A DNA stretch of 64,000 bases, taken from NCBI GenBank assembly GCA_040954595.2, contig CM082579.2, positions 6,809,625 through 6,873,624 of the forward strand, read 5' to 3'. The notes beneath the pieces are model-generated. The model searched no databases and was not told where the DNA came from. It saw only the letters and a list, made by a program, of their open reading frames with translations. A program made the position numbers and the translations under genes. Positions 17,301 to 57,676 of the stretch are shown piece by piece. The stretch is from Balanoglossus misakiensis (Eukaryota > Animalia > Hemichordata). The stretch's first letter is position 1; every line of letters starts with the position of its first letter.

Positions 17301-20055
17301 TTAACTCAAGTCAGAGATGTCAACAAAGATTTTAATAAATGCCACGTCATCCTTGACGTAAGCGTGACGGGGACTGTCTAAAACAGATAGCGGGAGAAAG
17401 AGAGGGCATCCGCTGGCGATGTTCAAGTCATTCCTCGGTCTCTGGAAAGAACTGGACGTCGGGTCAGGTCTGAAGGCATCGATGACGTGTTCTCTGTTGT
17501 TCTGGTCCATCCACATCAAGGTGACCTTCTGTCGGAATGGCCAACGGAGAAGAGCATCGAACGGCCCCTTCATGATGACGAAGAACAGTGAGATGTGATC
17601 GCCTTCTCCCATACCATCTCCGTTCAAATAAACTCGAGCGCACATCTTGTAGCCATGGCGGCTGGTGTAGAAACACGGAGAAAAGATGGACATAGTTCGG
17701 CCGCTGATTGCATCGTTTCGTTTACGAGTAAAGTCCGAGATTTTCCAAACCAACACCCCGTCATAGGAAGACATCTCCAAAGCTTGAATCCTGATATCTT
17801 GCTCGGCCATGGCAACATCTTTGGTCGCGATGATTCTGTCTTGAGCTTTGACTTTTCGTTCCAAACTGGCAATAGTTTCTTTGTCCTTCATGTGCTGTTT
17901 CTGTGTTGATTGTGCAATTTCTGTGGTCTTTTCTATCTGGTTATTGAGAACAGCGATGACGCCCTCAGCGGTGGACATCTTCGTCTTGAGAACAACGAAT
18001 GAATTTTTCAGCTCTTCTACAAACTTCTCCAGTTTACCTATAACGCCGTTTTGTTCTTGTTGAGAACCACCATCGTGTTTCTTGTCTGTCAAGGTCATGG
18101 CGCCCTTCAGGGTCTCTTCTAACTTCTTCCTGTCATCTTCAATTTCTGCAATCCTCTTTCCTTGTTTTTCCACGGCAGACTTCAACCCATGGACATCTCC
18201 GGTGCCATTGTTTTCCATCATTCGCATCATACCCAAAAATGGGATAATGGTTTGCATCAAGAGAAGAAGATGGTTTCCAATGAAACCACGCCCATGTTCC
18301 GCCATTTTGTTTTTCTCCACCTAATCAGACGTTCAAAGTACATAACTTACATTCATTCTAAAACGCAACATTTGATGTATGATCGAACCCAGCGATGGCA
18401 CATTTCCTAGTAAAACTCAAATAAAATGATTCTTAAAACACAATTATGGAAAACAGACGAACCTAGCACAAAAACACGCCACCAGCACCACCAACAACAA
18501 CAACAACAACAACGACGACGACAACAACAATAACGACAACAACTTACCATTTCTGTACAACCGACTTCTCGATATTCGCAGAAAACCAATTGTTGCTCAA
18601 GCTGCAGTTAAACATGGGAAATCGAAAATCAATAAAATACATAGACCGAATAGGTTAACAGGTGGAGGCCAACGCATTATAACTTCAAAGCCTTCACTTT
18701 TTTCATAATCGACAAGGCCAATTGTATGATAAATGTGAATTTCTTTAAAATTATTTTTAAAAATGTCATGCCATACCTGTTGTCGAGGTAATCGTCTCTC
18801 ACAGAACTGACAAGGTACAGGAAAGTTCACACACTGACCAAAATGTTCCTAAGTGAAAAAAAAAACAATAATTATCCATCCAATTATAAATTTTTAACTG
18901 TCTCAGACTGTCGCGTCGATATTATGAGGATCGGCAATGTGGTCATGTTCAATGATTTGTCAAGATATAGGTCAAATATGTGAAAGATTTGTAGTAGGCT
19001 TTTAATTGTCATTTCCTGGGTTCGTTTTACGGCTGAAGCAAGTTACAGTGTGACGGTGAAATCGTTTCAGGCTGAGTTTGAATTATGGATTTGAATGTAT
19101 TGTAGCGGGGGGGGGGGGGGGAGGGGGTTTCTACTCTCCAGCTTGCAATGCACGCATATGAACTGTGTCCTATTACCTCTTGATCTGCGTGTGTGATTTC
19201 CTCATCACAGTGGGGACACGCGGACACTCTCATGAGACAATCATTCTCCAGGTGCTCGGCAAGTCGTTCCCGGGGAAATGTTTTGTTGCAACCTCGCTTG
19301 ATACAAGATATTTTCTCAAAGGAACAGCTACTAATATGCTGCAAGAGACAAAAAAAACAACAGAAGTCGTGGTTGATGAAGTCGATACTCATATTACGTC
19401 ATATTACTCTTTAATTTAAAGGATTGGACTGTTTTCTCTCGATAATTACATTGAATCTTTTGTAAAGAATGGTTTACCTCTTCATACTGCTTGAAGTATC
19501 CTCTCCATTCACACCCTTCATTGACGCATCGCACTTTCTGTTCGTTGAGTTCCCGTCGGATAGCCCTGTCCGTGTACATCTAACGAAATAGGTTAAACTG
19601 AGATTAGTGCGTTTTTAATGTAGTTAACTGACAGTAATTTCACTTTCGGGTTATGAAAGTGCAACGGACAAATGTTCAATCCAATTTAATTTTAGGAATA
19701 CATTAAAAAATATTACATCTGTTATTACTCATGTCGGGGATTTGTTTTACTCCGAAACAGATCTTTACGGATTTTTACCTGGTCGAGTCCAATGAAAGAA
19801 TCCATCACCCCTTCATCTTGGCAGGCAATACACACATTTGTACTTCCGGTACAATTCCTTGGTAATAATGGAGAAAATAATGTTAATAAGGTGGTATTCG
19901 TGTTAATAAGGCGGTGTACATGTACATGTGGGCCTATTGGTGTTAATTACATCATCGTGAGTCTGTCATTGATGCGTGCGCACAAATGTGGTGAGTAAAA
20001 AATTGTATGACTTTTTTATTAAGTACACTGTACGACGACGACGACGACGACTACG

Positions 20056-20112
<57 letters not shown>

Positions 20113-20282
20113 CCAACACCAACAACAACAACAACTTACTTAACCATATCTTCCAAGCATCTCTTGCAATATCTATGTCCACACGATGTCTGCACTGCTT
20201 CACGCAGGACTCGAGAACACTTTTGGCATAAAAATTTCTCAGCAGGAGAATTGAGTAATACACTTGTCGGGAAGCCAGCCAT
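17301..20282 (-). CDS. TRAF2: TNF receptor-associated factor, TRAF2-like (RING, TRAF zinc fingers, coiled coil, MATH), copy 1, 7 coding exons
   Basis: Exons 20282-20140, 19857-19779, 19579-19478, 19338-19177, 18848-18777, 18601-18548, 18320-17301. RING CQKCSRVLREAVQTSCGHRYCKRC..CIAC. The MATH domain YDGVLVWKISDF..GYKMCARVYLNGDG..DQNNREHVIDAFRPD..NIASGCPLF is closest to TRAF2 as I recall it; exact orthology is not established. Confidence 0.88.
18480..18543. repeat. (CAC/CAA/CGA)n trinucleotide microsatellite in a TRAF copy 1 intron
   Basis: Directly visible. Confidence 0.8.
20031..20135. repeat. (GAC)n(AAC)n microsatellite next to the donor of TRAF copy 1 first coding exon
   Basis: Directly visible; it produces the spurious poly-D/poly-N and poly-L ORFs. 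Confidence 0.9.
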
Positions 20283-21617
20283 GGTAACTTCTGCGTCTCC
20301 GTGTTCGTTTGTGAGGCTCTGTCGTATACGTAAAAATAGCAACCGTGTAATGTGAATGTGAGCACAATAAATCAAACACGTATAATAGAATGCCAAGATT
20401 CTTTATTTTCAATGTGCTGACTGACGGCAAGTCCCCTACAAGGTTTCACATATAATGGTCAATTCCAGCCAAATTCATAAGCGAATAACTGAGTAAATGA
20501 TTTGAAATTGTTTTTAAATACATGTAGTAGAGCAGCGCAAACGCGTAAAATGTTCCCCCACCAACTTAGGGCACTTCAATGACCCATTGTTTGAATGTTC
20601 TTTATATCTTACCCGACGGTACATACCATTTTGCCAAATTCAATGTATTTGGTTTCTTTTGAGCACTTTATTTCCTTGTGAATTGGGTTCGATTAGATGT
20701 GGTGGTTGGTTTTTGTATTGGATTGGGCTGCGTCTGATTTTGGCCTGTCTCCTGATTGCTCGCTCTCCTCTTATATGTATAGCCGGTCTGTGCTTGACAC
20801 TGTTGTTATCGGTATGTTGATGGTGTTCAGCAGTCTTTGGTTAGGGGTTCTTGTTCCTCCCGTCCGGTTAACGTTTCTGGTGAGTCATTCATCCTGTTGA
20901 CCATTATATATACATGTACATGTACATGGGCGAGACTGGCTATTTATAGCATATGACGTGTTGACAAGGAGTACTCGTGTTGACATTTAGTGCACGTGAT
21001 ATGCTAAATAGCGTTACTATTTCTATGGCGCCATGGTTACGTAAACAACATGCGTCAATCTCCCGCCAAGAAAGGCAAGGCTTCACACGTTTGCTCCAAG
21101 CACAGGGATTTATTCAGGGAACGTTTAAGTAAGAATTATATGATATAAACTGAATAAATTTGTTGTCGGTCAACTCTTCTGTCTTTGTCTTACCGATACG
21201 GTTCTAACCGGAACACTGAGGCTTCTCTGCTCATACACTACACATTATAAACAATGGATGATAAAATGCGCCTGACCTCTCCAGCTGACCGCCTACTTGC
21301 CTTACTAGAAGGTCAGGCGGTAGGCAGAGTTCACCAAAAGAGGAGGGGGACACCCCCTCCCACATTAGAAAAATTGTATTATGAAGGGTGCAAAACTGCA
21401 TTTTTGTCGCAAAGTTTTCAAGTCCCCTTTCAGTCCCTAAATTATTTCAAACCCCCCCCCCTTACATACCCTCAATTTTTTCAAATCCCCCCCTCAATTC
21501 TCCCGCCCCCTCCCAGGTGTTTGTGAATGCAGCATTATCTAAAACAGAGCCACTGACGACCATTGTGTTTTATATGAAATACAGAACCATATCTGATCGA
21601 TCACCTGTCAAATGAGC

Positions 21618-24600
21618 TTAAGCGAGGTCAGAAACATCAATGATAATTTTGATAAAAGCCACATCGTCTTTCACGTAGGCATGGCGAGGACTGTCTATCT
21701 GAGATATTGGCATGAACAACGGACACCCACTTGCGATATTCATGTCACTTTGGGGCCTTTTGAAAGAGCTGGACGTTGGGTCAGGTCTGAAGGCATCGAT
21801 CACGTGCTCTCTGTTGTTTTGGTCCAGCCACATGAAGGAGACCTTCTGTTGAAAGGGCCACCTTAAGAGGGCGTCATTCGGACTTCTCATGATGGTGAAG
21901 AACAGAGACACATGATTACCCTTGCCCATCCCATCCCCATTCAGGTATATGCGAGCACACATCTTGTAGCCTGACTGACTCGTATAAAAACAAGGCGAGT
22001 AGAACGATGCCGTTGTGCCGCTCCTGGCTTCGTTAAGCTTTCTCGTGAAGTCGCTGATTTTCCACACCAAGGTCCCGTCGTAAGAGGCCATCTCGAGAGA
22101 TCGAATACGCATGTCCTGTTCCGCAAGGGCAACGTCCTTCAGGGCAATGACCCTGTCTTGTGCTCGGATCTTCCTCTCCAAAGATGCTACGCGTTCTGTA
22201 TCCTGTCGCCTTTGTCTTTCTAACGTTTGCAAAACCTGTGCGTCCCTATCTATCTGACCATTTAGAACTGCTACGATGCCATCATACGTTGACACTTTCG
22301 TTTCCAAAATCGTAAATTTGTTCGTCAGTTCAACTGACTTTGTATTTACGGATTCAATATCGCTTCTTTGGAAGGGTAATACGGCTCGTACATCAGTACC
22401 AGCTGCTTGGCCATGATTATTATTAATTTCGGCAACTCGTACACGTAAAGAGCTAAAGCTCTGTTCAATTTCTTCAATTTCATTTGCCTGACTTTTAGCC
22501 TGTCTGTCTAAATTGTGGAGTGCCACCGTGTCTTTCTTGACGTCATCAAAAACAGCTCCCATTTCAACAACACGGTCGCGTATCATCTCCTGGTGGCGAT
22601 ATATATTTTCTGTGTTATGCTCGTGTGACTTTCGTTCTTCAAGCTGCAATTGGAAATACAGAGTAAAGAATGTAAGTCTAGAGGGCTTTCAGTTACACAT
22701 TGTAACAAGGGGGAGAGTCAGCCTGGAGAAATACTGATAAAAAATCTTGGCCAATACTCATAAGTGTACAGACTTCTCAGGTAGGCTAGGCGACATCAAG
22801 CACTTTTGCCAATTAAAGCAAATGAATTAAGTTTTTTTGCGAGGGAATCTTGACCGCTGACGTTTCACCTACCAATGTATTGCATCCCACTAGTTTGAAT
22901 TTGCATGGTACCAGTTTCCTAGGACAGTTCCCTTTGTCTGGATCTTGGTGTTTCTTGAGCTGTATATAAAACATATGAGCATAATACATCAAATGTACAA
23001 CATCTGTACACTTTAAACCCCTGTAGCTATATCTTTTTACATGCAATCTTCGGAAATTTATTTTGGATACGCCATTAAGCTTAACATGTGTCTATTCGAG
23101 TTGAATTACCAATCAAGTGTCACAGAACGTAAACGATGTAAGCGAATGCGTTACTGGTAGATTGTGTTAGCGCCCATCGTTTAGTGACAATGAAAATGGG
23201 CAGATTCAGGGACAGATTTTCAGAAAAAATAATGGTTCAACAAACCCTCAAATTCGTTGCTATATTAAAGCGTGTGGGGAATCTTTTTGAAAGCAAAGAG
23301 GAAAAACTGGGGTGTTTACCGTCTTGTTTTCATGAATGTCAGTACGATCAATTTTCTCCAAGGACTAAACATAGAGATTGGCAGTCACTTTGAATTTCGA
23401 ATTCGAGACATATTGACACAATTGTGCTCATCCAAAAATTTTGCGCGGTGACTCCTCCCAATTATTAGTCACAATTTTAACAGAGAATGATCTAAATTCG
23501 CCTTGAGCAAAACATGAGAGAAATTTCAAAACTTGTTCGAGGAACATTCTACAATATGGATTACTCATATAGAGTATATGTATACAACGTGCGGTAAATG
23601 TACATCTACATGATAATTATCTTTATCGTATCTGTAAAGACAGTTTGAAATTACTTATTATGAAGTCTGGCTACTGACCTCCCTGCGTGGCAGTGTTGTT
23701 AATCTGCAAAAATGGCATATTATTGGGTATTCAAGGCATTCGCGTTGATGGTCCTGCAAAACACCACAGAAAGCGATAATAATGACATTGTATTAACCGT
23801 GTAAATGTATTTAATAAAAACCACCACCACCCCCAGCCACCACCACCACTAGGAAGATTAACTATCCTGCTTTATCAATAAAATACAGCCATGTACCTGT
23901 AGGGCTGGTGTACGTGCGCGACGCATTGGACCCATCCAATACTCTGTGTATTGAACATGGCTTATTTTATGATATGGAATAAGAAGAATAACAACGACGG
24001 TTTTACTTCTATCTCGCGTCTCTTTTCTGTCAAGAACTCGCAATGTATAGTAAGGGTTTGGTTGTTTGCCATTGACGCGGGCCAAGTGAATTACATGCGT
24101 CACCACTTGTACCTAAATTGTCTCAACAATTACAGAGTATTTTCTTGCCCGTGCGAAGGATAACACGATGAGATTCACCGTAAGACATAACATACCTCAT
24201 AGTCTTTTAACTTTCCTGTCCAATCGCAACCATCGTTTAAACATTTAACAGAAAGTGCGTTAAGTTCCTTACATATTGCACGATCAGGAAACACCTGTAA
24301 AGTAAGAAAACGACCCTTTAACTCTTGTTTTCCGCCAACTTAAGAACCTTTGCTTTCATCATGTTGTTTCTTTCGCCCAGTTTGTGTAAACACTGAAGTT
24401 ACATCCGACAAAATGCTTGTTTTATTGTGACAGGAAACGAAAATACTAGTTCATACAAACATAGTTGTTTCTTGAACCAATTATGTATGGTCACAGTGTA
24501 TGATGCACACTCACATCAGTTTTTCTAAGCTTTGAATCAGGAGTCCCTTCATTTTCGCACGCCTTGCAGTTGACTACCTGGACTCCTGGAAGCCTAGGGC

Positions 24601-25447
24601 AAGAAAATGAAACCAAATGCAATTATTTATTGGAGATCTCATGCTTCTCCTTCTACTGTCTATGTTCAAGTGTAGGACTACATCTACTAGTATTTCGACT
24701 AAAAGTATCGTGCGTTGCATATTCGTATGATGTGATTCCTTGTTTTCAACAACAGGGTTGGTTGGTTGATGACTTTTTATGAAGACTCCTCACGATGAAA
24801 AGTACATAAACCCTGACATTCAACTATTTGACCAATTTTACCGATACTTGCACGCATTTATCAGATTCCTAACTTATCAAACATGAGTATCTTAAAATGT
24901 CGGTCCATGATATATTTACAAACCGTTCAATAGTATTTCCCCAGACCCTTTTCAGGAGAGCAGCGGAAGAAGCAAAGGTGTCTGGGTAACCGAGACTATA
25001 TATTGGGATGGTCATATCAACTTTGGTTAGTGGGCGATGTCACCAGCTGCAGTACCTTGAAGATACTTACTTCCATCATTTCATTTCTAGTCAATGCCTA
25101 AATTGCATCGTAGTAGTATTCATTGTCATGCCCATATACAGGATTTGAGTTAATCTGAATGAGTATGTTTTTTTTCTGAGATTCAGAACATAATAATTCA
25201 TCAAAAAGAAAAATGAAATACCCAAAATGATATCAAAAGTGACTTTTCTGTAATATAATATTAATATAATATTAGACTCTACATAAAGCATATACCGGAA
25301 AAGGCTGCGGAAACATTCTAAGCAGTGGCGATGTCCACATTTGCTTTGAACCGCATGTTTCAGTACCAAGCCACAGGTGTCGCAGGTGAATTTGTCTTCT
25401 AACTTTTCGGTGAAAATATCTCGACGGTGACCACCTTTATAGCTCAT
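21618..25447 (-). CDS. TRAF2: TRAF2-like protein, copy 2 (tandem paralog), 6 coding exons
   Basis: Exons 25447-25296, 24593-24515, 24294-24196, 23753-23679, 22959-22873, 22643-21618; frame-consistent GT-AG. RING CDTCGLVLKHAVQSKCGHRHCLEC..CKAC, fingers CLNDGC..DHQREC and CHFC..HQDPDKGNC, and a MATH domain similar to copy 1. Confidence 0.87.
24931..24998. mobile_element. Short palindromic interspersed element (TAGT..CCCAGAC / GTCTGGGTAACCGAGACTA ends) in TRAF copy 2 intron 1
   Basis: Imperfect terminal inverted repeats. The right end GTCTGGGTAACCGAGACTA is the exact reverse complement of TAGTCTCGGTTACCCAGAC at 46756-46774. Confidence 0.45.
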
Positions 25448-27849
25448 GACGTCACCTGTATTTTATTGTTACGTTTATAAGTTCCAGCTCCTTTAAGAGA
25501 TAAAGGATAAAAGTGGGGAAATAGTTGCTGTGTTTAATAGAGGTATCAGCATTAAAGTAACCGTTATTGCGCATTAAAGCCCCAATTACTCCAACTTTTG
25601 GTTACTTTTCATGAGTTTTTCCATTGTGGCATTATCAAATTCGGTTTCTTGGTTTAATCTGGTCAGTTTTTAAAATCTTTAACATTTCAATAAAGCGTGT
25701 GTATGAATAACATCCATTGTTGACAAACAAATTCAAGTCCGCCGGCTTTAATTCCTTTGTCACGGTGTTGATTACTACAACAGGAATGTGCAGAAAAACA
25801 AAATAATGTGAAATAACGGAAATTAAACTCACCAATGACACTTTTAAATACATAAAACCAGATTGAAGTAATCTATATAGCGGGAGAAATTCCTGCAAAT
25901 TGGAGAAACATAGTATGGCGTTAGTAGGGGGATGATAAGGAAACAATACTCATAATACAATGTAATAAAACTTAATAAAGAAATAGATAATAATCTTAAT
26001 CGGAATAATGAGTGCATGGGATTTCAACGAAATTTTCACTCTAGTTGTAGTTTTAGGCACGAAGACTAATTCTGGGGTTTATTTTGGGGATGTATTTATA
26101 AGTTGGGTGTCCTTTCAAAACAAAGGAACTGCGCGTGCGCAAACAGGCAATGACCTGTCTGCTGACATAATCAAACTACAAAGATCATATTAGATCATAT
26201 TAAATATAGCATTTAAGGTTATTTACACCGATCGATCGATGCATTCCTGGTGACTATCGATCCTTTTAACAATTATTTAGACAATACCATTCCACTACGG
26301 TAACGTTTTACTGTCTTTGTGGCGTGATCGTATACATTGTTACGTACTGTGACGTGTTCAATTGTGGCTGGTCAAATTACTAATTAACTCAATTCACAGT
26401 GCGATTGGGTAAGATTATGACAAAAATTTCATATGAATAAATTTCGAAAACGAAAACGGAAGATGCCTTGTCTGTACTGTCAACCCGTCTCAGAAATCAC
26501 ATTAAAATTCCTATGATGATAATAATACGAAATACAATGCAAGACTTATCTTTAGCTTTCCAAACCGTGACTTTAGGTAAATAGCTGCCACTTTCATTTT
26601 ACTTGTACAATTCACACAATTTTACTTTGCCACCGTCAAACAGCCTGAGCAAGCAACTACGATTAAGTGGAGCACTCCCAAATAAACGTTTCAAACGAAA
26701 ACTCACACTGCTTTCTTCTTCATTTCTCGTTTCAGCCTAACGAACTTTTAAAACTGACTAAATTTCAATTGGGGGCCTTGGAACCGAAATGTGCACGTAT
26801 ATAGGCTCTCGCTCATTTAACTTATCAGTTATCACGGTGCCATGTGTACATAATTATTTTTTTTTCACACATCAAGTGGTACTTCAATAGAGGAATTGCG
26901 AAAATCCCACTGTTTCAGATCCTTTGGTGAAATGTCACGACAACACCTAGCATACACGGACAGAATCAGTCCTGGATCTATTGGCGTGTACTTTAAATTT
27001 CATTCGCACGACTGAGACTGACTTGTCAGTGTTGAATACACTGGGCCTGGCAGGGGTTTAACCGCTCAACCCAGTTTTGTCCAGTGTGTTAATCTATAAC
27101 GCCAATGTTACTGTCATGCATGGGCACATTTATGGACGGCCGAGATCAGTAATAAATCACCAGGAATGGCAGAAGAGTACCACGATGTGGATTTATAGAA
27201 CGGATCCGGCTCCCTATCGTGACGTGCCAATTGGCCATATTGTCAGTTCCACAACCGGTTCAGATCTTGAATGCAATTATTAAACCTGAAAATAGATTTC
27301 AGTGTTGTTGAACAGAAAGGGGCGTTTTCAAATTTGACGTTGCCTTGAATCTAGTAACTGTTGGCCCGTATTCAGTGCGGCAGCACTGACAGAAAATTTA
27401 TTGTCAGACTCGCAGGTTGAAATGTTCTGCAACCATGGGCTCAAACATTTTGTACTGCTTTCCCCGTTCTCTATACCGTAGCCCGTACTACTAAATGACG
27501 ACACAATTGAAAGACGAGCTTGTCACAATATTCTTGAAATAAACTGTTTTCAACCATTTTTGTACATACACCCCCATGTGTTATGTTATGGGTGTCGTCG
27601 GGCGATTTTTCCTGTTTGTTGTGAGCAACCCTGGAGTAAACTATCCTCCCATCACTGAAAAATGCTAATGAAGTATCTGAAACTGTGTTAATCACTTTCG
27701 AACGACGGACTTACCCCGTGCTCATAGCTTCATACATGCCTTTCCTCTGCTGGCCTTATCGCTTGTCACATACTTAGCAAAAGCAAAGGAGAACTCGCAT
27801 TCGATATCAGGGGGTAACACAGTCATTATACATAGACTATGAGGTCTAC

Positions 27850-30319: not shown

Positions 30320-30990
30320 CTGCATATGAATGAAAAGTCCATGTGTGGTCATCGTATGAGTTCCTTATTGATTTGATGTAAGTATTTAATGGATTTTTAC
30401 ATCAAAAAGAGAATTACTGTGCAACTGATGTATGTATTCTTGAAAGAGAAACGTTTACATCTGGGTTCCATCGGCAGAGGGAGCTGTACAACTCGCCACG
30501 ATTTTGCCATCTTTATATACAGCTAATTACAACGTTAGTTGTTTCATAGAGTACACTGAAATTGGTAATTGGTGAATTATGATACTGCCAGAACTATTCC
30601 GGCCTGAAGACAAGATCTAGTTCGACTGTACTGGGTCAGGTGATGTGTGTTGGGAGAATGAAATGATGTACGATGGGGGGGGGGGGGGGGGGGGGCTATT
30701 CCTCTGAAAACAATCATTAAAGCCCCATAGCTGCTGAAGTTGGGCATGCAAGATTGTAACTGCATGCGGTGACCTAAATAGTTTCTTTCGTTTTGCTGCG
30801 CATTTTGCAGGGTCGAGTAATCCGCATTCCCTGAGTGTTTGTATGAAAAAAATATGAAGAATGCATATTGGGTGTTCATAGTGGATGTTCAATGGTACTT
30901 GACAGTTTCCGATTTTGACGAAACACTTATAAACAACTTTCGTTTTGGGGAATTCGTTTGCTGATACGTGGAATCTACGTAATCGACGGG

Positions 30991-31000
30991 GGGAATTCCC
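30991..31000. promoter_or_regulatory. Perfect palindromic NF-kB-type site GGGAATTCCC upstream of the SPRY-NHR-ARM-ART gene
   Basis: Exact consensus match ~1.3 kb upstream of ATG 32308; function is untested. Confidence 0.3.
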
Positions 31001-32307
31001 GTTCATAAAATCAATATTAGTCAACCCGGAAATTCTGCATGCATTGAGACAGCAAACCTTGCAGTTGCAGAGTTGAACCATTCCCTGCTTAGTTTTTATG
31101 AACGCAGTGAATTATAACGTTTTCGAGCTGTAATCAAGGTAGGTGGGCTGGATATGGGGATCTATGTGTAGCAATGGCGAACTGTACATCCCAGATGCGA
31201 GACGGAATTGGGCTAAAAGCACTGAACCATATGGGTGTAGGCCTACCAAAGACCTGGTCATAAACTGAAACTGATCGAGTGCGTGTAGTGCGCACGAGTT
31301 GAAAAGCTGTCATTGTCACGAGTTCAACATAAGGGTATTTTCTACACTATATAGACTTAATTACTTTCGGTTTGTTATATGTGGGTCATACGTTGTGTTT
31401 TCTTGGAGGAAGTGATGTGTTTTAACATTGTATTATTGCTGTAAATCGACAAATGCAGTAATTTAGATGTTAGAAATTTCAAACAAACATGTTTTGTAGT
31501 CCAGACGCGCTCAAGAACCGCCTGCATGTTGATTCGCTGTGGTGTAATTTCAGTGTGCGCACAGCATGTGACCATTTACTACATTGTAATAGTATGTGGG
31601 ATGTAATAAATGTGCGTATACGTCACACCCCTAGAACTCAGAAGCCATTATGCGCAGGCGTGTTGGCGTTGCAATAAACCTATTCTCGAGAAGGGGGTCA
31701 TATTTCCATCGCGTATCAAATATTCCTGATATTTTCGAAAATCCTTTGTCAATACCACCGTGTTTATTGAACACTGCGCTATGCATCATCATGTCTTCAG
31801 GCTGTGACATTTTACAAAACTGTTGATGAACGGAACGACACATTGTTGATGTCTGCGTTTTTTTGCTATGTACGCACGTATTTGCTGTAGGCAGCTGTGT
31901 TGGCGGCCACAGTTCGCAAAACATAATGAAGTGCCCAGCTTCACCTGATGTCAGTGGACAGATGAGTTACGATATGATTAATATTTGCTTTGCCTGTTGC
32001 ACCGCCCATGCACCCACTGTTGTCCTGGGGGTCACATGGCAAGCCTCACCAGTTTACAGTTTCGTGTACAGTTTTAAAGTGTTATGAAGATATGGGTGTT
32101 TACAAGCGCTGGGAGCTCGTTGCGCATACACTCAGTTTTCGGTTTCATTTTGGGCGAAGAACATTACGAAGAAAAACACATTTACTGGCAGAACAATTAT
32201 AAAGTGTGACGACAAAATAGAACTGTAGTTCCAGGAGTGTGTATAAACTTAATCAAGTTCGTAATCGTCATCTTCCAGGTTGTACCTCGATTCTACTGAA
32301 AACGAAA

Positions 32308-35300
32308 ATGGGGAATCTTGAATCGGAACTGGCAGGAATGCACGGCGCGGGCTTCAACGGGATGACGCATCCCGCCATGGCCGCCCAGGAACGACGGCGC
32401 AATCTCGACAATCTGATCATGCATCAGGCTCTGCTGCGAGCCCTGTCCGAGCTGTCCGACGACCAGCAGTCCATAACACCGGAGCAGCGCGAACACGCCT
32501 GGGACCCGGAGGACTGCTCGTCGAACTTCCGAGTGCTAGCCGACCGCGTCACCGCCAGACGGGGCGAGCAGCCGATGCGCACCGATCTCATACGGGGGAA
32601 GAAAGGCTACCGGGTGGGCAAGCACGTCTTCGAGATCCACTGGCCCGTCGACGAGAGGGGCTCTCACGCCATGATCGGGGTGTCGACGCCGGCGGCCCCG
32701 ACGGGATGCATCGGCTACACGTATCTCTTGGGAGCTACGCCGGACTCCTGGGGATGGAGTCTGGTCGACAGGAAGATAGCCCACGGAGGTCAGATCAGGG
32801 GAACGTATCCCCCTGGTAAACCCGACTTTCAAGTTCCCGCCACTTTTTATGTCATTCTGGACGCCGACAACGGAACGCTTAGGTAAGACGGAGACTGCAT
32901 GAGGTAACAAATCTAACATTAAAAGGTACACGGTTACCCATACAAATTACAATGGCAAATTTAGATCTAGTCAATCACAATTTTTCAGTGTTGGCACACG
33001 CGAAGGAGAGTGCCACCATGTGTTCTTCAGAACACTCAGATACGCCATTTTAGGCATTCTCGACAAAAAAATCTATCTCACTCCCAGTGGTGTGTTTTGC
33101 TGTATTTCATTCCTGCTTCCAAAAATAACGGATGTATTTTTCTATTTTCGCTCTGGTACTTTCCAACAGCTTTAAGGCGAACGACCAGAATCTAGGCGTT
33201 GCTTTCAGCAACTTGCCATCAGGCAACCTTTTGCGGCCGCTGTGCATAACTGCATGCGCCACGTGCGGTAATGGTGACGTCAGGATGAAGTACATGGGCA
33301 GTGGAGGTCAGTTGATTTTAACTCGGGTGAAGAGGTCATCATTGAGTTTGAGTACAACAGTAGATTTTTGTCGGATTTTTGAAGCTCCAAATCCAAGCTT
33401 TAAATGAACAAAATCTGGAAAAAAAACATTATGAATAGAGCAAATGAGAGAAAATTCAGTTCCACGGGAGAAACAACGCGATTTCGCCCAACAGAAAATC
33501 CAAAAAACATTTATTCTGATTCACATAACGTTTAACGTGCTAATGTGAATACCCTTCGCTATTTTCAATACTTAGGAGAGATTGCCCAGGTGACATCTGC
33601 TGGCGAACAGATCGTTTCGGTTCCTGCGCCCGCAGGCACCAGTCTGTACAAATTCCACCCAAGATGTGGCGACAACGTCGACGTCATGTACAGTGGACGT
33701 GTAGCCAGGCGACGAGAGTACGTTATACCAATATTTTGTTCGTAAACTTAGTATTTTAACACGCTTATTCGAGAAATATTCTGCCTGCACTATGACATCA
33801 CTGTGAGAAAAAAATGACGACATAAAAATTTTGCTTTTAAGCGCCAGAGACACGTACAACAACGGAGTAGTGCTCACGAGGACTCCCCTGAAGACGAACG
33901 AATTGTTTGAAATCCGACTGGACACCAAGATCGGAAAATGGGCGGGAAACCTGGAGATCGGCCTGACCACGAACTCCCCCGAGACGTTCGAGTATTTCCC
34001 CGCGGCGATGACGGACTGTAAGACGGGCGTGACGTTGATGTGGTCTGGCTGCAACGTGGCGAAAAATGGCAATAAAGTGGCAGAGCTGAGCAAAGACCTC
34101 GACGATTGCACGGTGAGATTGTCTCTCTTTACTATATTTACAAACACATTATGTGAAGACAACTACAGAACACGTGTCTCTGCTTTTGAAAAGTTGAAAT
34201 TTGTAGTGAACGAGAGCAACGATAAAAGTGGTTTTCATCATCTATGTAGTGACCCACCCAACACCTTGTTCGAATAAATATGAGCAGACCATGAAAATTG
34301 AAATCTTGAAGGGACGAATTTAAAACCCATTTTTGTAATATCGTTCAGATCGGCGACAGAATTGGCATCGTTAGGAAAGAAGACCGGTCGGTCCATTTCT
34401 ACTTCAACGGCCGTGTTCTACCGAAAGCCGTTCGACTGAAGAACAACCCTGAAACCGTGTACGGCGTTGTGGATATATTCGGGCAAGCGGAGCGAGTAAC
34501 AATCATAGGTAAGGCGTCGTTAAAAGCCGTGTGTAACTTACACCATTAATGTATGCTAGCGGGACTGTAGGTTTTACATTATTTTTCATTTGCTAATTGA
34601 AGATGAACTTTTTCTTTATCACGATACATTGCCAGTATAATGAGACTATTTTGTTTTGTGAAATTGTTTTAGTTCAATCTGTTTTGTTTGTCTTCCTTGC
34701 TGTGCACACTAGAGGGTGGGACAGTGCCTGCCTCTGCCACACAAACTTCGGAGACCCAGGGGCAGGCTGCAGGGGCGCCTGTGAAAGAAGAAGCCATCGG
34801 CAACGACCCGAACGCCATCATGTTCAAAATGAGAGACACCATCGACAAACTCCGAGACGGGAGCTTCCCTGACATGCGCATCGCGATCCAGGACGTTGGC
34901 ACCAACATCACGCAGCCGTACCACGGCACGGAGGACAGGAAGATTCGCCAGCGGTTCGGCGATCACCTGGCAAACATCGGCGGCGCCCAGGAGCTGACCA
35001 AACTCCTGGTTCGGCTGGATGACATGGGCATGGAGACGCCGATCGCCTGGGCGGGGATCAACCTGGTCCGCAGCACCTGCTGGAACTACTCCGACTCCAG
35101 CTTGAAGATCTGCAAACAGTTTGGCCAGAGCGGTCTGCTGAGACGCATGCTCAGCGATCTGGATAGGTACGGGCCTGGTCCGACCAGGAACGAGGTACGT
35201 CAACTTCATTGTATGCCATGGCATGCAGCCAAGGGTGTTTGTTACCCTTTCTATTCAGTTCGGTGGTAGGTTTCTTAGACGGCAGTAAGATATGCCCCAA

Positions 35301-37826
35301 AACTTTCAGTGATGATTTAACGGTCTGGGATTCGGTGAAGAAATGGCCGTTTAGTAAATATGGACACGTCCGTATTTCTTTCAGAAACGGAGGTATCTAG
35401 TCGTGTCTTCCTTGAATATACTGCACAACTGTGCTAAAGCGACGGAAAACCGACAGCTGTATCAGGACCTGCGTGCCATCGAGCGGATCGCCCCGTTTCT
35501 GAAATCTGGAGACATGTCGGTGGCTTCCAGCGCCCTCTTGACTCTCTCCTACATCGTTGAAGACGACAAAAAGGAACTACTCGAGGCCGACCAGGCGACA
35601 ATCGCTTTCCTTCTCACGCTTCTCGGCAGCGCCGTGGACGACCCGGCACTGCGGGGGAAATCCGAAGACGGAACCTTCTCCGCGCTGGAGATCGCCATGG
35701 GCCTCGGCAACATAGCCATCAACGACGCGAACAAAGCCACCATGGTCGAAGGCGGGTGCATCCCGCTGTTCGTGAAACTGCTGCAGCGAGGCGGGCCCAC
35801 CGAACTGGAGTGCAGCGCCAACGCGCTTTGGGCGCTGGCGTCGGTGGAGTCCAATAAACCCAAAATCAGGTCCGAACCCCAGGCCATGGAGACCCTCAAA
35901 AAGTTGTGTGGCCATAGCAACGATGCCGTGAGGCAGTCAGCCGAGCGTCTGTTGATGGTGTTGAGACCTGTTCCCATGCAGCAAATGGGTAAGTGATGCG
36001 AATGAATTTCGATGTAAGAACAAAGAGTTTTTCAGCAACAAAGGTATTGTTATCCCAGCAACAAATTGGGCGGAAGTTGGTCCTGGTGCTTTTTTCCCAT
36101 GATTCAAATTACTGTAAACGCCATATTGGAAATTCTGCCAACTTTCCCTCGTGTTTGTAAAAAATTGCGCGACTTATACATGGCGAAAGTTACAAGTACC
36201 TGTCTTGCATTTTTTTTCTTTCAGCATTTGGAATGACTGCTTCAACTGTATCACTGCACTGTGAATACAAACAGCTTTGTGCTCGATTCGTGGAGTCGTT
36301 GAAACTTTCAGGTAATTTATTCTGCGGCGCATTACGTATAGTCGTCAACAATTACATGTATATTAATGCAGAATATAGACAAGGAAAATGTACAAAACAA
36401 AATAGAAGGGAAAAACTGAAAACAAGAGCTGTATAAAGAGACTGATGAGAAATTCGACTAATCCGTTCTGTCCATACCGCAGATCATTTCTTCAACAAGG
36501 AGTATGACATGTGTTACTGCACGACCTGTCACACAGAGAGAGGAGACAAACTGTACTACACGCGGGGACAGCCAGCCAAACTATACGGGGTGCCTGTCGG
36601 CTGGTGTCGTCATGCCTTGAAGTGAGTCATAGGCCTATAGAATGTGTGACAGTCAAACATGTAAAGGAACCAAACTGGAGAGATTTGCTCGATAACACTT
36701 AATATGTCATATTCGGAATGTCTGTAGACTGTGGCGTTTCCAGGAAGTATCTGCAGGCAGAACAAATCATTCCAAAGTCACCCAATACCTTATCAATGAC
36801 GCTGAATACATGCGCCTAAAACTGCTTCACATCGTGCTGGAGCATGTACACTATACTGACAGAGCCAACACTTCCTTCTATCTGTCTTTATTGCAGAGTC
36901 CACGACCGAGCCCATGCCCTGGACGTGTTCAAGAAATGGCACATATCTTTCCACGGCACCAGACTGGACGCAGTCAGGCCAATTCTAGAATGTGGGGACC
37001 TGCTTATGCCAGGTATGTTGCATGGCAATTCAATAGTAGCAGCGATATATTGCCTCTGCTTGGCAGTTTTCCAGGATGGTGGTATCGAGTGATTTCTCAC
37101 ACCCAGCTGCATGCCCCAAGTAAAATTTCCCTCGTATATCAGTTCTAGTATTCAAGAACACCATGGCCTATCTGGTACACACATGTATGCTCTTGTCATT
37201 TTGTTATGCGATAGCATAATAGAGATGGCTACAGTCGTTTACCTGTGATGTCCATGGGGGTATTTTTTTCTCTCTCTCCAGGAAGCACTATTAATACGAA
37301 GATCTATAGTAACTTCTCTGACATCCGTTCTTACCCACAGGTGACGTCATAATGGGAGGCAAAGAGCTTGGGGAACGTGAAGGACATTTTAACCCCAAAT
37401 GGAAACCGGAAAATTTTGATACAAAACAGATTTTTCTGTCGCCGAGTATTAGATATTCCGGTCACCAAATCTACTCATTTCCAAGCGAGTAAGTAAGACA
37501 GGCAACACACAAAGCTCGTGTAATTCAACGGTGGAATTTCGACCACAGCAAAATCATCTTATATCAATATAGCAAGAATGAAATACTAGTACTACATTAT
37601 TTCTTTTTTACATTTCAGTTACACTGACAAAGTGACCAACAAAAACTACCAGGCGAGAGTGGTGTTCCAGGTGTACATTAACCCGGACAGTTACAAAGTT
37701 GGGCCGCAGACCATCGGAGCCAAGTCGGAAATTGACCCCAAGTTCGACAACCAGGAAATCGAGTGGTTCACTAAACAGCGTGGTTGTGTGATTCTGTACG
37801 GGCTCCTGGTAAAGCTTGAAGAGTAA
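32308..37826 (+). CDS. Multidomain protein (~1022 aa): SPSB/GUSTAVUS-type SPRY + neuralized homology repeat + ARM repeats + NEURL4-type C-terminal ADP-ribosyltransferase-fold domain, 12 coding exons
   Basis: Exons 32308-32882, 33170-33306, 33576-33717, 33842-34112, 34349-34508, 34713-35194, 35385-35988, 36225-36311, 36483-36621, 36897-37012, 37341-37488, 37619-37826; total 3069 nt, in frame. SPRY: HAWDPEDCS..TDLIRGKKGY..GSHAMIGV..SWGW..LDADNGTL. NHR: FHPRCG..NNGVVLT..ELFEIRLD..WAGNLEIGLT..GDRIGI..VYGVVDIFGQ. ARM: LNILHNCA, LGNIAINDANK, SANALWALA. C-terminus: CYCTTCH..GWCR..WHISFHGT..IFLSPSIRYS..FQVYINPDSY..QEIEWFTKQRG..LYGLLVKLE. Confidence 0.85.
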
Positions 37827-52458: not shown

Positions 52459-55400
52459 ATGGCCTGCCCGAAGAGAAGATGCAACGCCTTACAATATTGC
52501 CGTGAAATACGTTTGACGTTGACGCTCATCGCTACCTTCGTGGTGTTGTCAATGACATTGATGCAGCAAGCAGGTAACACACTTATTCTGGACTGGGCAC
52601 AGTCATTCAGAAACTTATAAGATTCCCCAAACAGTAGCTGATAAATCTAACTACATGTATAGTATTTTGTTATAACTCATGGTCATCATAGGAAAAAAAT
52701 AATTCGATTTCCAGGTTGTACCACCTTCTACTTTTTCAAGCCGATGGATCACGCTGCAGCCTATACGTTTTGTGAGCGATTCGGATTTCGCCTGGTTAAA
52801 GACGACAGCGAAACAAAACACGCGGCTTTGCTAAAGACTTTAGGAGAACAAGACATTCTAGTAAATCTGTTCAGGATAGATGCTCGGCTAAGTGACAACG
52901 GACGCGTAGTCACAACAAGAGACGGGGAAATTTTGACGTACAAGCCCTGGGAAGTAAATTTTCCAAAGAATAACGAAGAGTGCATTATACTGGGGTGAGT
53001 TGAGCGTTTTGAAAATATAATTGAAGTATGCAAAGTAATGCTTTTGGGGGCTTTAAACTAAAAGCATTCACATATATATTATCATGTGGAGAAGCATGCG
53101 ACCCTCAATATTATCAGTAGGCGCAGACTTGATTGACGATTGTAATCATATCAAGATGTTGCAACGGGCAATGTCTTCAGAAGACATTCTTTATGTCTTT
53201 GGCAATTGCAACCATACATCTTTTTTTTATGGGCAACCTTGAGTTACTCTGTCTACAGATGTGTCTCATCGTTACACTGCACTTTCTGTGTCAAAATGTG
53301 GTGCACCATGTGAACTAGTTTGTCTATTTTCTCCATTGGCGAATCACGACACAGATAACGGATGAGGTATGCTATAAACCTGTCTATTTAATTCACAGAT
53401 TTGGCAGCTGGCGGGACTTCGGTTGCACCTTCGCCATATTCACCGATGTTCTGTGTGAAAATGCAAGTAAGTCATTGTTTAATGGGACTTCTTGCCCAAT
53501 CTAATTATATTAGACAATTGTAGCGGTTTTTCGGTAAACGATGCTTCTTAGACGACGGTTTTGTTTCTTCAATATGCAGCTTCTTTCGACTTGACTAGCA
53601 CAGCGCCGAAGGGTTGGATGTATGCATATCAGCAGTGTCTGAAAGTTGGACTGCGTTTGATGACCGAAACGACCTCGTGGAAAAGCAAGCAGTTCATTGC
53701 TTACCTTCAACCGTCGGACAGGGTATGGATCGATGCTACCATCACGCCAGATGGCACAGTAAAGACAACCAGTGGCGTGATATTGCAACACACGCCTTTT
53801 GCTCCCGACCAGAAAATTGACGCTGATTTGTGTATTTACGTAAAGTGAGTTCCTCTCAGCTCATGTTTTCTCTATCAGAAAAAAAACAATTGCTATATAT
53901 ATATCAACCAGTTGGCGAATCCAAGGGTTGATATTCTTTAGATATAGTATTATACTGTAAGCATGGCATTGGTGTTATGTGAATATTATTCGCATTGACT
54001 GCTCTCAAGCTTTGCGGGATTACCATGGATACGCCGACGGAATAGGTTGAAAACTAGTTTATACATACTGCTATCGGACAAAGTCACCCCATTTTTAACA
54101 CCAAATCCCCTAACCCTTTCACCCCCATATCCCCGTGGAAAAGGCCGTCACTGTCATGGTCAACAAAATAAGGGTTGGGCCAAAACAAGGTGGCGAAATG
54201 GTTAATCGAGGATATCCATTTTTATACAGATGTGACCGAGAATGCCAGTGGTTCACACTCGATTGTGATGAAGGTATATCTGACCGTGTAAATCGCATAT
54301 GCGAGGATAATGGTAAGCAGCCTAGAGACATCAGTGTATAGTCCATTTCATAATTACTTCCCTTCCATTGCGACTGATCACGTTTTAAGTTAAATTGTGT
54401 CATCCCATCAAAAGTTAGCTTTCATTTCAATACATCCTTATACAATAAAAACAATGCCACACATGTGCACACACAATAAAAACATCTACTCTCCTGGAAG
54501 GATGTTTACATTAAATTCACGCAATTGTATGGACCATGCGTTTGACTCGGAATTGCAACGCTAAACTCATATAATCGGCATTTTAATAGAACTAAGTAGA
54601 CATTTTATCATTTTTGCATGATATGATGTTTAATTGCATCTTCCTGAAAAAAGATGAAAATGTAACAGGGTATGGATGAATGTAAACGGGTGAATATTAA
54701 AACTTCTTGCTTCCGGTTCATAGATGTATTAAACAACAACTGGTATTATTCATCAACAATTGTGTTCATGCCAACATCTGTTGGACCCAATCCATTAACA
54801 TTCGTGGGAAACCTCTAGGCTATTCCCAAAACGACTGTAATTGTATGCCGAAGTATCACAAGCTGGGCAATTAATCAGAGAATAAGTTTCATCTTGCGGG
54901 TAATCAGCAAAAGTCGCCATTTCAGGTGTGCTGAACTTTGGGGACAAGGCCGCTGCTCTTTGAATGCAACGTTCACATCTGAGATCGAATGTATCACACA
55001 CACATCATCGCCTGATTATGAATCTATCACACGTACACCTAAAAATTCACACATGGCATTTCTAAACTGAGTGGTATCCCAGTTAATAAACATTATACAT
55101 ACACGGTTCGGTTTTCCACCTATCATGTCATCCGTCTTTTTCTGATTCAGATGATGACTTACTTCTGCTGCGGGAGAGCCTGGTTAAGATAAACGTCAGC
55201 GGATTTAAAACGACGGCTATGGTAAGAGAATCGGCATTCGTGTGAGAGTGTGAAAGTGATCGTAACTGCATATAGCTAGGCAATGTCAGTCAAGAGCGTC
55301 ATTAGAAAAACGATTTCCCATTCTGCCCTTTTCATTCAGGGTATCGAAGTGATTGACATGTTGGACGGATTGCTGTCGGACCTTCATGAGAAAAACATCA

Positions 55401-57676
55401 CATATGAAGGAAGGATTTTACTTGCGCAAGGTACTTGATATCTTCAACAATGTGAATTTGTGTCATATATACACATGATTTAGGGATTGCAATTTGTTGT
55501 GTAACACCAATTATTTCATATTACAGAGGTACTGAATGTCATACAAAACGTTCTGGACAGAATGCAGTCCCTGAGTGACGTCAATCGTGGCCAGAAGCTG
55601 GACCCAGGGCGGGCAAACCACCTGACAGCGAAAATAACGGACGTATTCGATCAGTTATCAATGTTTATACTGAACGAGACCAAGCGTGGACATCCGCCAG
55701 TTGTCGCGAGAACGTCCTCATTTGTGCTGAATCTGGAAAAGAACTATGTGCGGGACCTGTGCAATGCTACTCTGATGCTTGGAGATGGAAGTGGATTCCG
55801 AATTCCTCCAGCAGACGCCATTTATCCCCATTTGGCGCCGGACAGGGTTTTGAGCAGGATGGTGAGTATGCAATCTAAAGAATTACAAAAAAAAAATCTG
55901 TCTGTTGTTTCGTGCTGGAGATGTAACTTCCCAATGTTCTCTCCAGGTTTACCGTTTCGGCGGCAATCCCCACAGACTGGCGAACAGGACCCATGGCTTC
56001 ACCAGTGATATACTGACCCTGGAATTTAGAGATGAAGATGGTTGCGAGATGAAAGGTTGGTGAGGAGTAATGTCGTCGGTGGTATCCCCCGCATCCAATT
56101 CGGGTATCAATTCATGCTGGGATGAATTTGTGCTATTTATATGACTATTTTTTGTACTAATCACAGAACAATTTCATTTCAGTCAAAAACGCTTCCGAGG
56201 ATATCGGCGTATGGCTTGGGAATTACCAGACACCACGAAATGAAAGCATCGTCTCCGGGTGGTACGTGGAAAGTGAAGCAGTCACTCACTACGCATTGAC
56301 AGTAACGGTAAACCTCGCACATTGAATGAAACTATTAAACCGACTATTGCATGTTCTGATCTCTACTCTTCGACAATACCATCATCTTGGTGCAATGGTC
56401 ATTCGCGTAAAACCAAATGTAAATGCACTCAAATTATAATCACCTACGGATGTATTTCGCAACATGTAAACACCAGGGTATGTCCTCATGACCCGAGGTC
56501 TGATGACCAACGACACACACCGTGTGAATGGAACTTGCATACCTCCAAACACAGGCAAGGTTGACCTCAGCAAGTTCAGTTGTACCTTTTTTGGAGTTCA
56601 TTTCGCATTGGTTTCTAATCCTTGTAGGCACTATCGACCTACTCTGCCATTCAAATCACCATGGAAGCGTCAGTGCCTATCTTCGAGACAACTACAGCAT
56701 ATGTATCACTGGAGAGACTTGACGCCATCGGTGGTCACCATGGTTTCCATTATGCTACTGAGTTTGCATTTGACGGGTGTACAACATCCATATTTCTACC
56801 AGAAGCAAAGATTACCAAGACGGGCCTGTATTACATTGCCTTTGATCTGTACACTGGTAAGTTTCTGTATATGTACATGTACATGTATATGTTTATAATT
56901 TTTTTTACTTTGAGAATCACAGATAATCAGGATCGTAGATAATCACCACAGTTGTGGTTCACTGCCTGTTGGTGTAATTACCGTGTGTGTCAAGAAATGT
57001 AGGCCACGAATATATCAACCCTATCACCACCATGGTTCAGTCCAACTCCATTGATAAGCAAGGTTGGACCTCTAAAAAGTGAACTGGGGCGAAAGTGTTA
57101 AATTAGATGTAATACGAGATAAAACTGTGCTTCGTCTGTTTCCACGCAGGCCACAAGGTGGACATGAAAATTGTCACCACTCAGCACAGATGCAGCTACT
57201 TTGTTGACAATAATTGGCAGAATGATGGTTGCAAGGTATAGCACACTTTTTCTTCTAATTTTGTCCAAATTGGAGCCCGCCGAGTTCTTCCAAGCACAGT
57301 CCCTAAAAAGGACCGTCTTTCTCGAGGGGCTGTGTTCCAAGCAATGAACCAAAAGACAAGTGGCCGTCTGTGCAATTTCAGTGGATACTGTGGGCAAATA
57401 AGCAACAAAAACTTGAAATGCAGAAGATATTGCATTTTGTGACTGACTCTGACATGTGGTAAAACTATTGCAAACTTATTAACTGTGATGATGCCTGCAT
57501 GTGATGGCGCATACAAGTGTTTAATGGTGTTTCTTTTTGAAAAAAAGTCCTCAATGTACCAATACGTAGAATTTCTGCTGAACGTTTTACAGGTGTCACC
57601 AAATTCCGACTACAATTCTACCCTGTGTCTGTGTAATCACCTGACTGCTTTCATGGCAATGGTGGGAATCGTTTAA
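52459..57676 (+). CDS. Polycystin-1-like (PKD1L/REJ-related) ectodomain-only protein, ~646 aa: signal peptide/anchor + 2 C-type lectin-like domains + GAIN domain ending in a GPS motif; no TM, PLAT or channel region; 13 exons
   Basis: Exons 52459-52573, 52715-52994, 53399-53466, 53580-53844, 54230-54312, 55151-55221, 55340-55430, 55527-55861, 55947-56055, 56183-56307, 56628-56856, 57150-57235, 57593-57676; total 1941 nt, in frame. CTLD1: AYTFCERFGFRL..EECIILG..WRDFGC. CTLD2: AYQQCLKVGLRL..VWID..LCIYV..WFTLDC. PKD-type GAIN: GFRIP..NPH..SDILTLEFRDEDG.EMKVKN. GPS: CSYFVDNNWQNDGCKVSPNSDYNSTLCLCNHL/TAFMAMVGIV*. AATAAA at ~58008. Confidence 0.8.

Follow-up and report, generated by a model that had tools for sequence, protein, structure and literature searches.

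A locus in the acorn worm Balanoglossus misakiensis raises the question of whether a single animal protein joins an SPSB-type SPRY domain, a Neuralized (NHR) domain, a block of ARM repeats, and a C-terminal ADP-ribosyltransferase (ART) domain like that of NEURL4, and, if it does, what such a protein is for. The locus lies within a 64,000-nucleotide stretch (GenBank assembly GCA_040954595.2, contig CM082579.2, positions 6,809,625 to 6,873,624, forward strand), which is called the window here and whose numbering is used throughout. An initial annotation of this DNA had proposed a recognition-gated ADP-ribosylating enzyme with hints of innate immunity. The analysis described below confirms one real 12-exon, four-domain gene, assigns it to a conserved family whose ARM block is shared with invertebrate ARM-TIR proteins, and partly supports the earlier interpretation, which had missed a conserved N-terminal MGxxxS signal.

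Structure of the gene

The gene occupies 32308-37826 on the + strand. Its 12 exons (32308-32882, 33170-33306, 33576-33717, 33842-34112, 34349-34508, 34713-35194, 35385-35988, 36225-36311, 36483-36621, 36897-37012, 37341-37488, and 37619-37826) form a single reading frame of 1022 amino acids (aa), and every intron is of the GT-AG type. Around the guessed splice sites only two combinations of exon boundaries are free of stops; these differ by one codon at the exon 3 acceptor, where alignment to the orthologue of Ptychodera flava favours the 1022-aa choice. This orthologue (XP_070553265.1, labelled 'neuralized-like protein 4' in RefSeq) aligns by BLASTP from the first to the last residue, with 818 of 1023 positions identical (80%); the corresponding values are 63% for Saccoglossus and 46-49% for cnidarians. 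The ART is the domain most alike in the two orthologues (89% identity, compared with 78-83% for the other domains).

Pfam recognizes SPRY (E 2.5e-5, partial), Neuralized (4e-16), and Arm (2e-8) in the window exons, and no Pfam family was matched by the C-terminal exons when exons were scanned singly. In agreement with the initial annotation, Pfam lists no SOCS-box family for the window exons or for the P. flava orthologue, and neither a SAM or other oligomerization domain nor a TIR domain was found by Pfam in either. Three 1019-aa Logan proteins form one cluster, the representative of which has the full layout, and derive from contigs of 3,265-3,925 bases; because these contigs are too short to contain introns, they likely represent a single spliced transcript in a coral-like animal. 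Taken together, the open frame, the introns, and the full-length orthologue bear out the single 12-exon gene first described, and the four original domain calls (SPSB-type SPRY, one NHR, ARM, and NEURL4-type ART) are upheld by Pfam, matches in the Protein Data Bank (PDB), and alignment. A sequence resembling a splice acceptor at 32270-32281, 29 bases 5' of the ATG, suggests that there is an upstream non-coding exon and that the true promoter lies further upstream.

The NEURL4-type C-terminal module

The C-terminal module (aa 803-1022, exons 8-12, 36260-37826, +) consists of a Cys/His subdomain and a PARP-like ART, and over about 220 aa, Cys/His subdomain included, it is 49-59% identical to the same region of three invertebrate NEURL4s. 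An ART is said to have been predicted in NEURL4 by de Souza and Aravind in 2012. Within the Cys/His subdomain lies CYCTTCH (aa 830-836, 36512-36532, +), a candidate metal-binding motif; its three cysteines are present in 56, 56, and 57 of 57 aligned ART rows and its histidine in 50. The CxCxxCH pattern had initially been taken for an element of its own; it is indeed there, but it is also present in canonical six-NHR NEURL4s and belongs to the NEURL4 module. The remaining motifs are FHGT (aa 884, 36949-36960, +), with the predicted NAD+-binding His885; IFLSPSIRY (aa 935, 37430-37456, +), whose Phe936 and Tyr943 we take, from the PARP motif, to stack on nicotinamide; and QEIEW (aa 999, 37752-37766, +), with the predicted catalytic Glu1002 (and Glu1000). 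In the 57 rows Tyr943 and Glu1002 are invariant, His885 is kept in 56, an aromatic Phe/Tyr936 in 55, and Glu1000 in 53. Passages of PMC8932523 report that human NEURL4 makes ADP-ribosylated products and that mutations of its HGS and ELEW motifs abolish the activity in vitro, the ELEW mutant being a further ground for the assignment of Glu1002. Two reviews (PMC9027952, PMC10789625), in their relevant parts, class NEURL4 as a diverged ART and describe its activity as 'suggested' or as a recent report.

Since Foldseek and VIA searches with the full-length model returned SPRY, NHR, and ARM matches, the ART was folded alone, using the domain of the Saccoglossus relative, which is 73% identical to that of the window. 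This model has a predicted local distance difference test score (pLDDT) of 93.3 and a predicted template modelling score (pTM) of 0.90. All rows listed by Foldseek are PARP catalytic domains, 20 of them at E<=1e-3, and the top 17 rows from VIA are PARPs or pseudo-PARPs, the best being PARP16 (Z 10.1, root-mean-square deviation 3.5, 137 residues aligned). The predicted fold and the His...aromatic...Glu layout are thus common to this ART and to PARP16, PARP10, PARP15, PARP4, and PARP1 (Z 9-10), whereas identity to PARP/ARTD domains is 11-14%, there is no Pfam PARP match, and the family has the extra Cys/His subdomain. The PDB sequence search gave no ART match among the matches listed. The C-terminal domain, which had been proposed as an ART from its FHGT, LSPSIRY, and QEIEW motifs, is therefore predicted by modelling to adopt a PARP-like ART fold with the His/aromatic/Glu residues intact.

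Comparison with NEURL4 shows both kinship and distance. The two share a NEURL4-type NHR and the same Cys/His and ART module with its HG[ST] and E[IL]EW motifs, but NEURL4 has six NHRs where the window family has one (by Pfam, in the orthologue), and the window protein adds an SPSB-type SPRY, an ARM module, and an MGxxxS start. In addition, the window ART keeps an aromatic residue where human NEURL4 is listed, in the passage concerned, as H-L-E (PMC7955679), a comparison with that listing and not with a direct human alignment. In an unrooted ART tree (isoform duplicates, ART matches of <170 aa, and ARM matches of <200 query columns were left out of the trees), seven six-NHR NEURL4s form one clade (support 100/99, starred), and 11 amphioxus rows, mostly with LRR/ZU5 or glycosyltransferase fronts, form a second (100/100, starred). 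The window protein and the P. flava model are sisters and fall outside both clades; the position of the window protein outside the NEURL4 clade indicates that this is a NEURL4-type ART and not a NEURL4 orthologue.

Other fusions of the NEURL4-type ART were observed: to a PIDD-like LRR-ZU5 arrangement (one protein with two ART copies) or to a glycosyltransferase, Branchiostoma rows being among the sources, and to an actin-like domain in a Branchiostoma/Oculina set, which may be gene-model joins.

The ARM module is shared with ARM-TIR proteins

The ARM block noted initially is present at aa 458-783 (exons 6-7, 34799-35966, +), but it is about 325 aa long, not ~350. Searched alone, the region matched 1,167 clusters at E<=0.001; among the best 150 of these, 66 carry a TIR, 13 carry an ART, and none carries both, many of the remaining clusters being fragments or ARM proteins of a generic kind. 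In a set of 35 selected ARM matches, Pfam verified TIR_2 in 14, and other members of the set proved to carry a kinase, CARD, or B-box. When the ARM profiles of the ART family and the TIR family were compared by HHalign, they aligned over 325 columns with probability 100 (E 4.9e-61), that is, over the whole length of the module; this includes the N-terminal half, which generic ARM proteins had left unmatched in the PDB search. N604, E691, N702, and N705 of the ARM are common to both families. The effector starts a median of 16 residues after the ARM in the ART proteins and about 23 residues after it in the TIR proteins, and 60 of 61 full TIRs behind this ARM have Glu at the position that we take to be catalytic. 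By these sequence comparisons the ARM block is a module of invertebrate ARM-TIR proteins, and the ART sits in the place of the TIR.

The two kinds of protein thus have in common the ~325-aa module, an effector right behind it, and frequently an MG start; they differ in that the family described here has an ART instead of a TIR, together with a SPRY and an NHR in front. Named ARM-TIR matches come from amphioxus, Lingula, a tunicate, and lungfish. An ecTIR-DC class was reportedly described by Gerdol and colleagues in 2017. ARM-TIR proteins are a catalogued invertebrate class (PMC4346834, PMC9334734), to which the passages in question assign no function. In the ARM tree, one branch parts 40 ART-bearing from 63 TIR-bearing rows (SH-aLRT 88, unstarred, quick method). 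The trees, being unrooted, give no direction for an ART/TIR swap, and a single origin of ARM-ART is neither rejected nor established when 39 rows are held together (p-AU 0.594).

The initial annotation had likened the ARM block to that of SARM1. The likeness is one of logic, ARM repeats being followed in both by an NAD+-using C-terminal domain; SARM1 differs in having tandem SAM domains and a TIR NADase, neither of which was found here, and the enzyme fold is another one. SARM1 was not among the matches listed in the PDB sequence or structure comparisons, the lists being filled by other ARM proteins. Given the homology to the ARM of ARM-TIR proteins, these are the relevant relatives, and SARM1 stays an analogy only.

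In further proteins (Branchiostoma and Lymnaea among the sources), the same ARM module is joined to CARD, or to a protein kinase together with Mind-bomb SH3 repeats. The lungfish Protopterus has an ARM-TIR protein, although related TIR classes have been described as absent from vertebrates.

The N-terminus, SPRY, and NHR

The protein begins with MGNLES (32308-32325, +). MGxxxS is a consensus for N-myristoylation. An MG start is present in 14 of 17 full-architecture rows and MGxxx[ST] in 12 of 17, in a region (aa 1-56) that is otherwise only 7-27% identical beyond the orthologue. None of seven canonical NEURL4s has the MG start; it is retained in amphioxus and acorn-worm forms that have no SPRY and occurs in 26 of 44 ARM-ART rows and 30 of 70 ARM-TIR rows. 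The sequence of the N-terminus therefore fits N-myristoylation.

The SPRY domain (aa 57-237, exons 1-2, 32476-33306, +) is of the SPSB1/2/4 type by Pfam and structure match: in a PDB sequence search the best matches of the orthologue's domain are SPSB2 (E 2e-39), and SPRY domains of SPSB1/2/4 and Drosophila GUSTAVUS are 39-44% identical to that of the family. SPSB2 residues required for binding iNOS are mapped in passages of PMC2911665. Equivalents of the SPSB pocket residues R100, G101, H103, Y120, L123, and L124 are kept in the window SPRY as R117, G118, H120, Y137, L140, and L141, whereas those of T102, S126-S128, V206, and W207 are altered to S119, A143-P145 (SNS to ATP), T223, and C224, respectively. 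Coral copies retain more of the pocket (V-Y and S-N kept). In SPSB proteins a C-terminal SOCS box follows the SPRY; here a linker and the NHR follow it, so that the protein does not have the SOCS box through which it could serve as an adaptor for Cullin-5.

The single NHR (aa 261-428, exons 3-5, 33644-34508, +) was identified by Pfam and by its match to PDB 2e63 (KIAA1787, which we take to be human NEURL4). This match has an E value of 3e-26 for the orthologue's domain, compared with 1.6e-5 for Drosophila Neuralized, and a structural Z of 24.8 in the full-length orthologue model. A profile of the family NHR, run on six NEURL4s, scores 174-193 bits with repeats 2-3 and 99-141 bits with the last repeat, so that by sequence the family NHR is closest to NEURL4 repeats 2-3. 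An origin by plain insertion of an ARM block between the last NHR of NEURL4 and its ART was accordingly rejected, since the NHR resembles repeats 2-3 and not the last.

Distribution of the family

The family was surveyed by three homology searches and one search of 50% representatives, through which 208 proteins were examined. ARM and ART occur together in 44 of them, the window protein included, and all four domains in 20 of the 44, namely the window protein and 19 proteins from databases, among which one gene is represented by two isoforms. The four-domain members come from acorn worms (Ptychodera, Glandiceps, Saccoglossus), an anemone (Actinia), corals (Oculina, Montipora, Porites), a brachiopod (Lingula), and a tubeworm (Lamellibrachia), and most are labelled 'neuralized-like protein 4' in the database. 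As judged from these sequences, the four-domain family had arisen by the time cnidarians and bilaterians split, if not earlier. Among the variants that keep ARM and ART, the front end is replaced by SH2 (Ptychodera), by four Mind-bomb SH3 repeats (Branchiostoma), or by nothing. Paralogue expansion with such shuffling is seen in acorn worms, Lingula, and amphioxus, P. flava having at least 14 proteins of the family, apparently on the same contig; corals have one or two copies among the matches.

No vertebrate, arthropod, nematode, echinoderm, or mollusc member was present among the named matches, in searches that were word-limited and leave absence unproven. NCBIfam gave nothing meaningful, and Atlas gave no usable match for ARM with ART, exon 7 matching generic ARM clusters only. 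With patterns narrow enough to leave room for bacterial relatives, one of 16 matches in genome_contigs was confirmed, an intron-flanked coral-like exon on a contig of a metagenome-assembled genome (MAG), and none of 67 matches in viral_contigs was confirmed with patterns likewise narrow. The contig in question, assigned to Phycisphaerales and AT-rich, carries at 1-1500 the final exon of a family member resembling those of corals, together with an intron whose donor is GC, and is likely host DNA that was misbinned; its intron falls at the same codon and in the same phase as intron 11 of the window gene. The initial annotation had known of no described protein with all four domains. In the literature searched no description of the SPRY-NHR-ARM-ART architecture was found, a layout that figures or supplements of earlier domain surveys might show, but the gene is not a one-off fusion: it belongs to a conserved family already in RefSeq.

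Proposed mechanism

The gene, its domains, the family, the ARM homology, and the conservation of the motifs form the base for the reading that we prefer, albeit tentatively and with slightly less than even confidence: the protein may be a myristoylated, membrane-tethered ADP-ribosyltransferase that its ARM block keeps gated, with release occurring during immune or stress signalling. A lipid anchor predicted on Gly2 would tether the protein to membrane. The C-terminal module would transfer ADP-ribose from NAD+, an activity that, by analogy with human NEURL4, it quite probably has. The ARM would pack on the ART across the ~16-residue linker and hold the enzyme in check, until a ligand bound in the groove of the ARM, where N553, S558, N604, E691, N702, and N705 are conserved, opened the ARM-ART pair; we consider such gating and ligand-induced release to fall just short of an even chance. 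SPRY and NHR would serve as exchangeable docking parts that select the complex to be modified, because the paralogues swap in SH2, Mind-bomb SH3, or nothing while keeping ARM and ART.

Structural models bear on the gating step. The full-length orthologue model (pLDDT 80.1, pTM 0.69) has flexible linkers between the domains, and a pTM of this size, although the largest domain is one third of the chain, suggests defined packing. When the ARM and the ART of the P. flava orthologue were modelled as two chains, the contact score was 0.58, the best of three controls reaching 0.12, with 100% agreement of contacts between runs and a partner pLDDT of at least 84. Overall, 51 of 78 solved pairs and 2 of 108 mismatched ones reach the contact mark; among eukaryotic pairs it is reached by 39 of 65 solved ones for which there is no similar complex and by 2 of 126 unrelated ones. 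Only 5 of the 78 solved complexes, but all four passing mismatches of 180, reach the mark at <=0.60, so that the score gives weak support; because ARM and ART are covalently linked, contact between them was likely beforehand. Of the earlier idea of the ARM as a switch, ARM-ART contact is weakly supported, with an ARM of the ARM-TIR type.

That the protein acts in innate immunity or stress we regard as an even chance. The initial annotation had cited an upstream kB-type site as a hint of immunity. The site, palindromic GGGGAATTCCC at 30990-31000 (no strand assigned), is real; it lies 1.3 kb upstream of the ATG, between the gene and a head-to-head TRAF gene. The window, however, has eight strand-matches of this kind at five places, against an expectation of 3.7, and a count of eight also arises in 6 of 100 shuffles, so that the count is not above chance and the site was rejected as immune evidence. 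Other observations favour an immune context: the same ARM is partnered with TIR, CARD, and kinase, the same ART is joined to LRR-ZU5 in amphioxus, and local expansions are accompanied by front-end shuffling. These domain partners and paralogue expansions make a better immune argument than the kB site or the adjacency of TRAF genes.

Two tandem TRAF2-like genes, which encode MATH and BIRC3-binding domains, lie at 17301-25462 (-); exons for zf-TRAF and RING were also found. The one at 21618-25447, head-to-head with the SPRY gene, encodes EINNN (22416-22430, -) in its coiled-coil region. This is the sole match to the SPSB1/2/4-binding consensus [DE][IL]NNN in the six frames of the window. Its chance occurrence is about 0.001 per protein, or 0.01 per 5,000 aa, in a test made after the motif was seen, and binding of the SPRY to EINNN of TRAF is offered as a lead only.

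Several points weigh against the preferred reading. The SPSB pocket is only partly retained in the window copy, the PARP matches of the ART are distant (11-14% identity, TM about 0.4), and the ARM-ART contact passes in the weak range with no given interface, contact not being equal to inhibition. The members are known from sequences and models alone. The kB site, as noted, does not exceed chance, and the window copy is a slowly changing orthologue, with low copy number in corals, unlike an arms-race gene. In addition, passages of PMC9334734 and PMC6321704 treat the function of ARM-TIR proteins as itself only hypothesized, and, in the literature searched, the NEURL4 activity comes from one study, which in the passages concerned places it in mitochondria, as DNA-stimulated and not immune (PMC8932523).

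Alternative explanations

The evenness of this conservation would suit a constitutive, NEURL4-like housekeeping ADP-ribosyltransferase, in which the ARM is a scaffold or substrate arm and the role is upkeep of membrane, centrosome, or ubiquitin pathway and not immunity. The orthologue line is strongly and evenly conserved, coral copy number is low, NHR and ART are both of NEURL4 lineage, and NEURL4 is linked to mitochondria and the centrosome in passages of PMC8932523 and PMC3417536; yet the nearest ARM relatives are joined to TIR, CARD, and kinase domains, the paralogues of acorn worms, Lingula, and amphioxus have expanded and been shuffled, and ARM-ART contact is weakly predicted, and we judge the housekeeping role rather unlikely. 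The position of the ART, which replaces a TIR behind the same ARM, where those TIRs keep their presumed catalytic Glu, raises instead the prospect of an NAD+ glycohydrolase or an executor of cell death that is gated by the ARM and, in the manner of ARM-TIR or SARM1, drains NAD+ or makes ADP-ribose instead of modifying selected proteins. NAD-consuming bacterial effectors do appear in the list of ART folds, at low Z, but the top structural matches are protein-modifying PARPs, human NEURL4 yields ADP-ribosylated products, two peptide-binding domains fit the choice of a target, and no SAM or other oligomerization domain was found; an executor of this kind is clearly unlikely.

A pseudo-enzyme scaffold, in which the ART fold would bind NAD+, ADP-ribose, nucleic acid, or a partner without catalysis, is improbable. 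The pseudo-PARPs PARP13, TASOR, and RCD1 are among the fold matches, the aromatic of the triad is Phe and not Tyr, and Pfam gives no PARP match; against this, His and Glu are near-invariant in the 57 rows, which span three subfamilies, and the activity of NEURL4 depends on the same motifs. Finally, two adjacent genes, one SPSB-like and one ARM-ART, might have been fused by prediction only, as the gene model here comes from genomic DNA alone and ARM-ART paralogues that have no SPRY exist. This is extremely improbable: the layout recurs as one polypeptide in 19 database proteins of four phyla, the Logan proteins with the full layout are likely from spliced transcripts, the exon phases are consistent, and no stop follows the SPRY.

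Other genes in the window

A cluster of otopetrin-like genes occupies 38847-63629 on both strands; three long exons were confirmed by Pfam, and look-alike otopetrin first exons lie near 40625, 46076, 60202, and 63138. Coding-looking exons at 52663-56008 (+) have no Pfam match at E<=0.001. Two near-identical galactose-3-O-sulfotransferase genes, at 9387-10487 (+) and 11639-12862 (-), are inverted tail-to-tail and are likely a recent duplication. The window also contains an F-box protein encoded by a single long open reading frame (566-2119, +), with a kB-type palindrome upstream at 194-203, and exons of a PH-domain protein (5882-7361, +).

Significance

Although each part of the protein is of a familiar type, their combination, the age of this combination, and the sharing of the ARM module seem not to have been described before. 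A broader and more speculative picture, which we hold to be on balance doubtful, is that of a hitherto unrecognized modular signalling system of marine invertebrates in which one membrane-anchored ARM sensor is coupled to different outputs (TIR NADase, PARP-like ART, kinase, or CARD), the present gene representing an ADP-ribosylating branch older than the cnidarian-bilaterian split, and the acorn-worm form perhaps modifying immune adaptors such as the neighbouring TRAF with its EINNN.

Whatever the setting, the NEURL4-type ADP-ribosyltransferases of animals would gain a second subfamily, an old one that RefSeq at present mislabels as NEURL4. Its catalytic motifs resemble the PARP pattern more closely than do the motifs listed for human NEURL4, which makes it well suited to giving this enzyme class a first structure and a clear test of activity. 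The subfamily would also link the large ARM-TIR family to sister proteins whose NAD+-using output is different and easy to assay, and it has members in corals and an anemone, animals in which innate immune signalling counts for disease and symbiosis.

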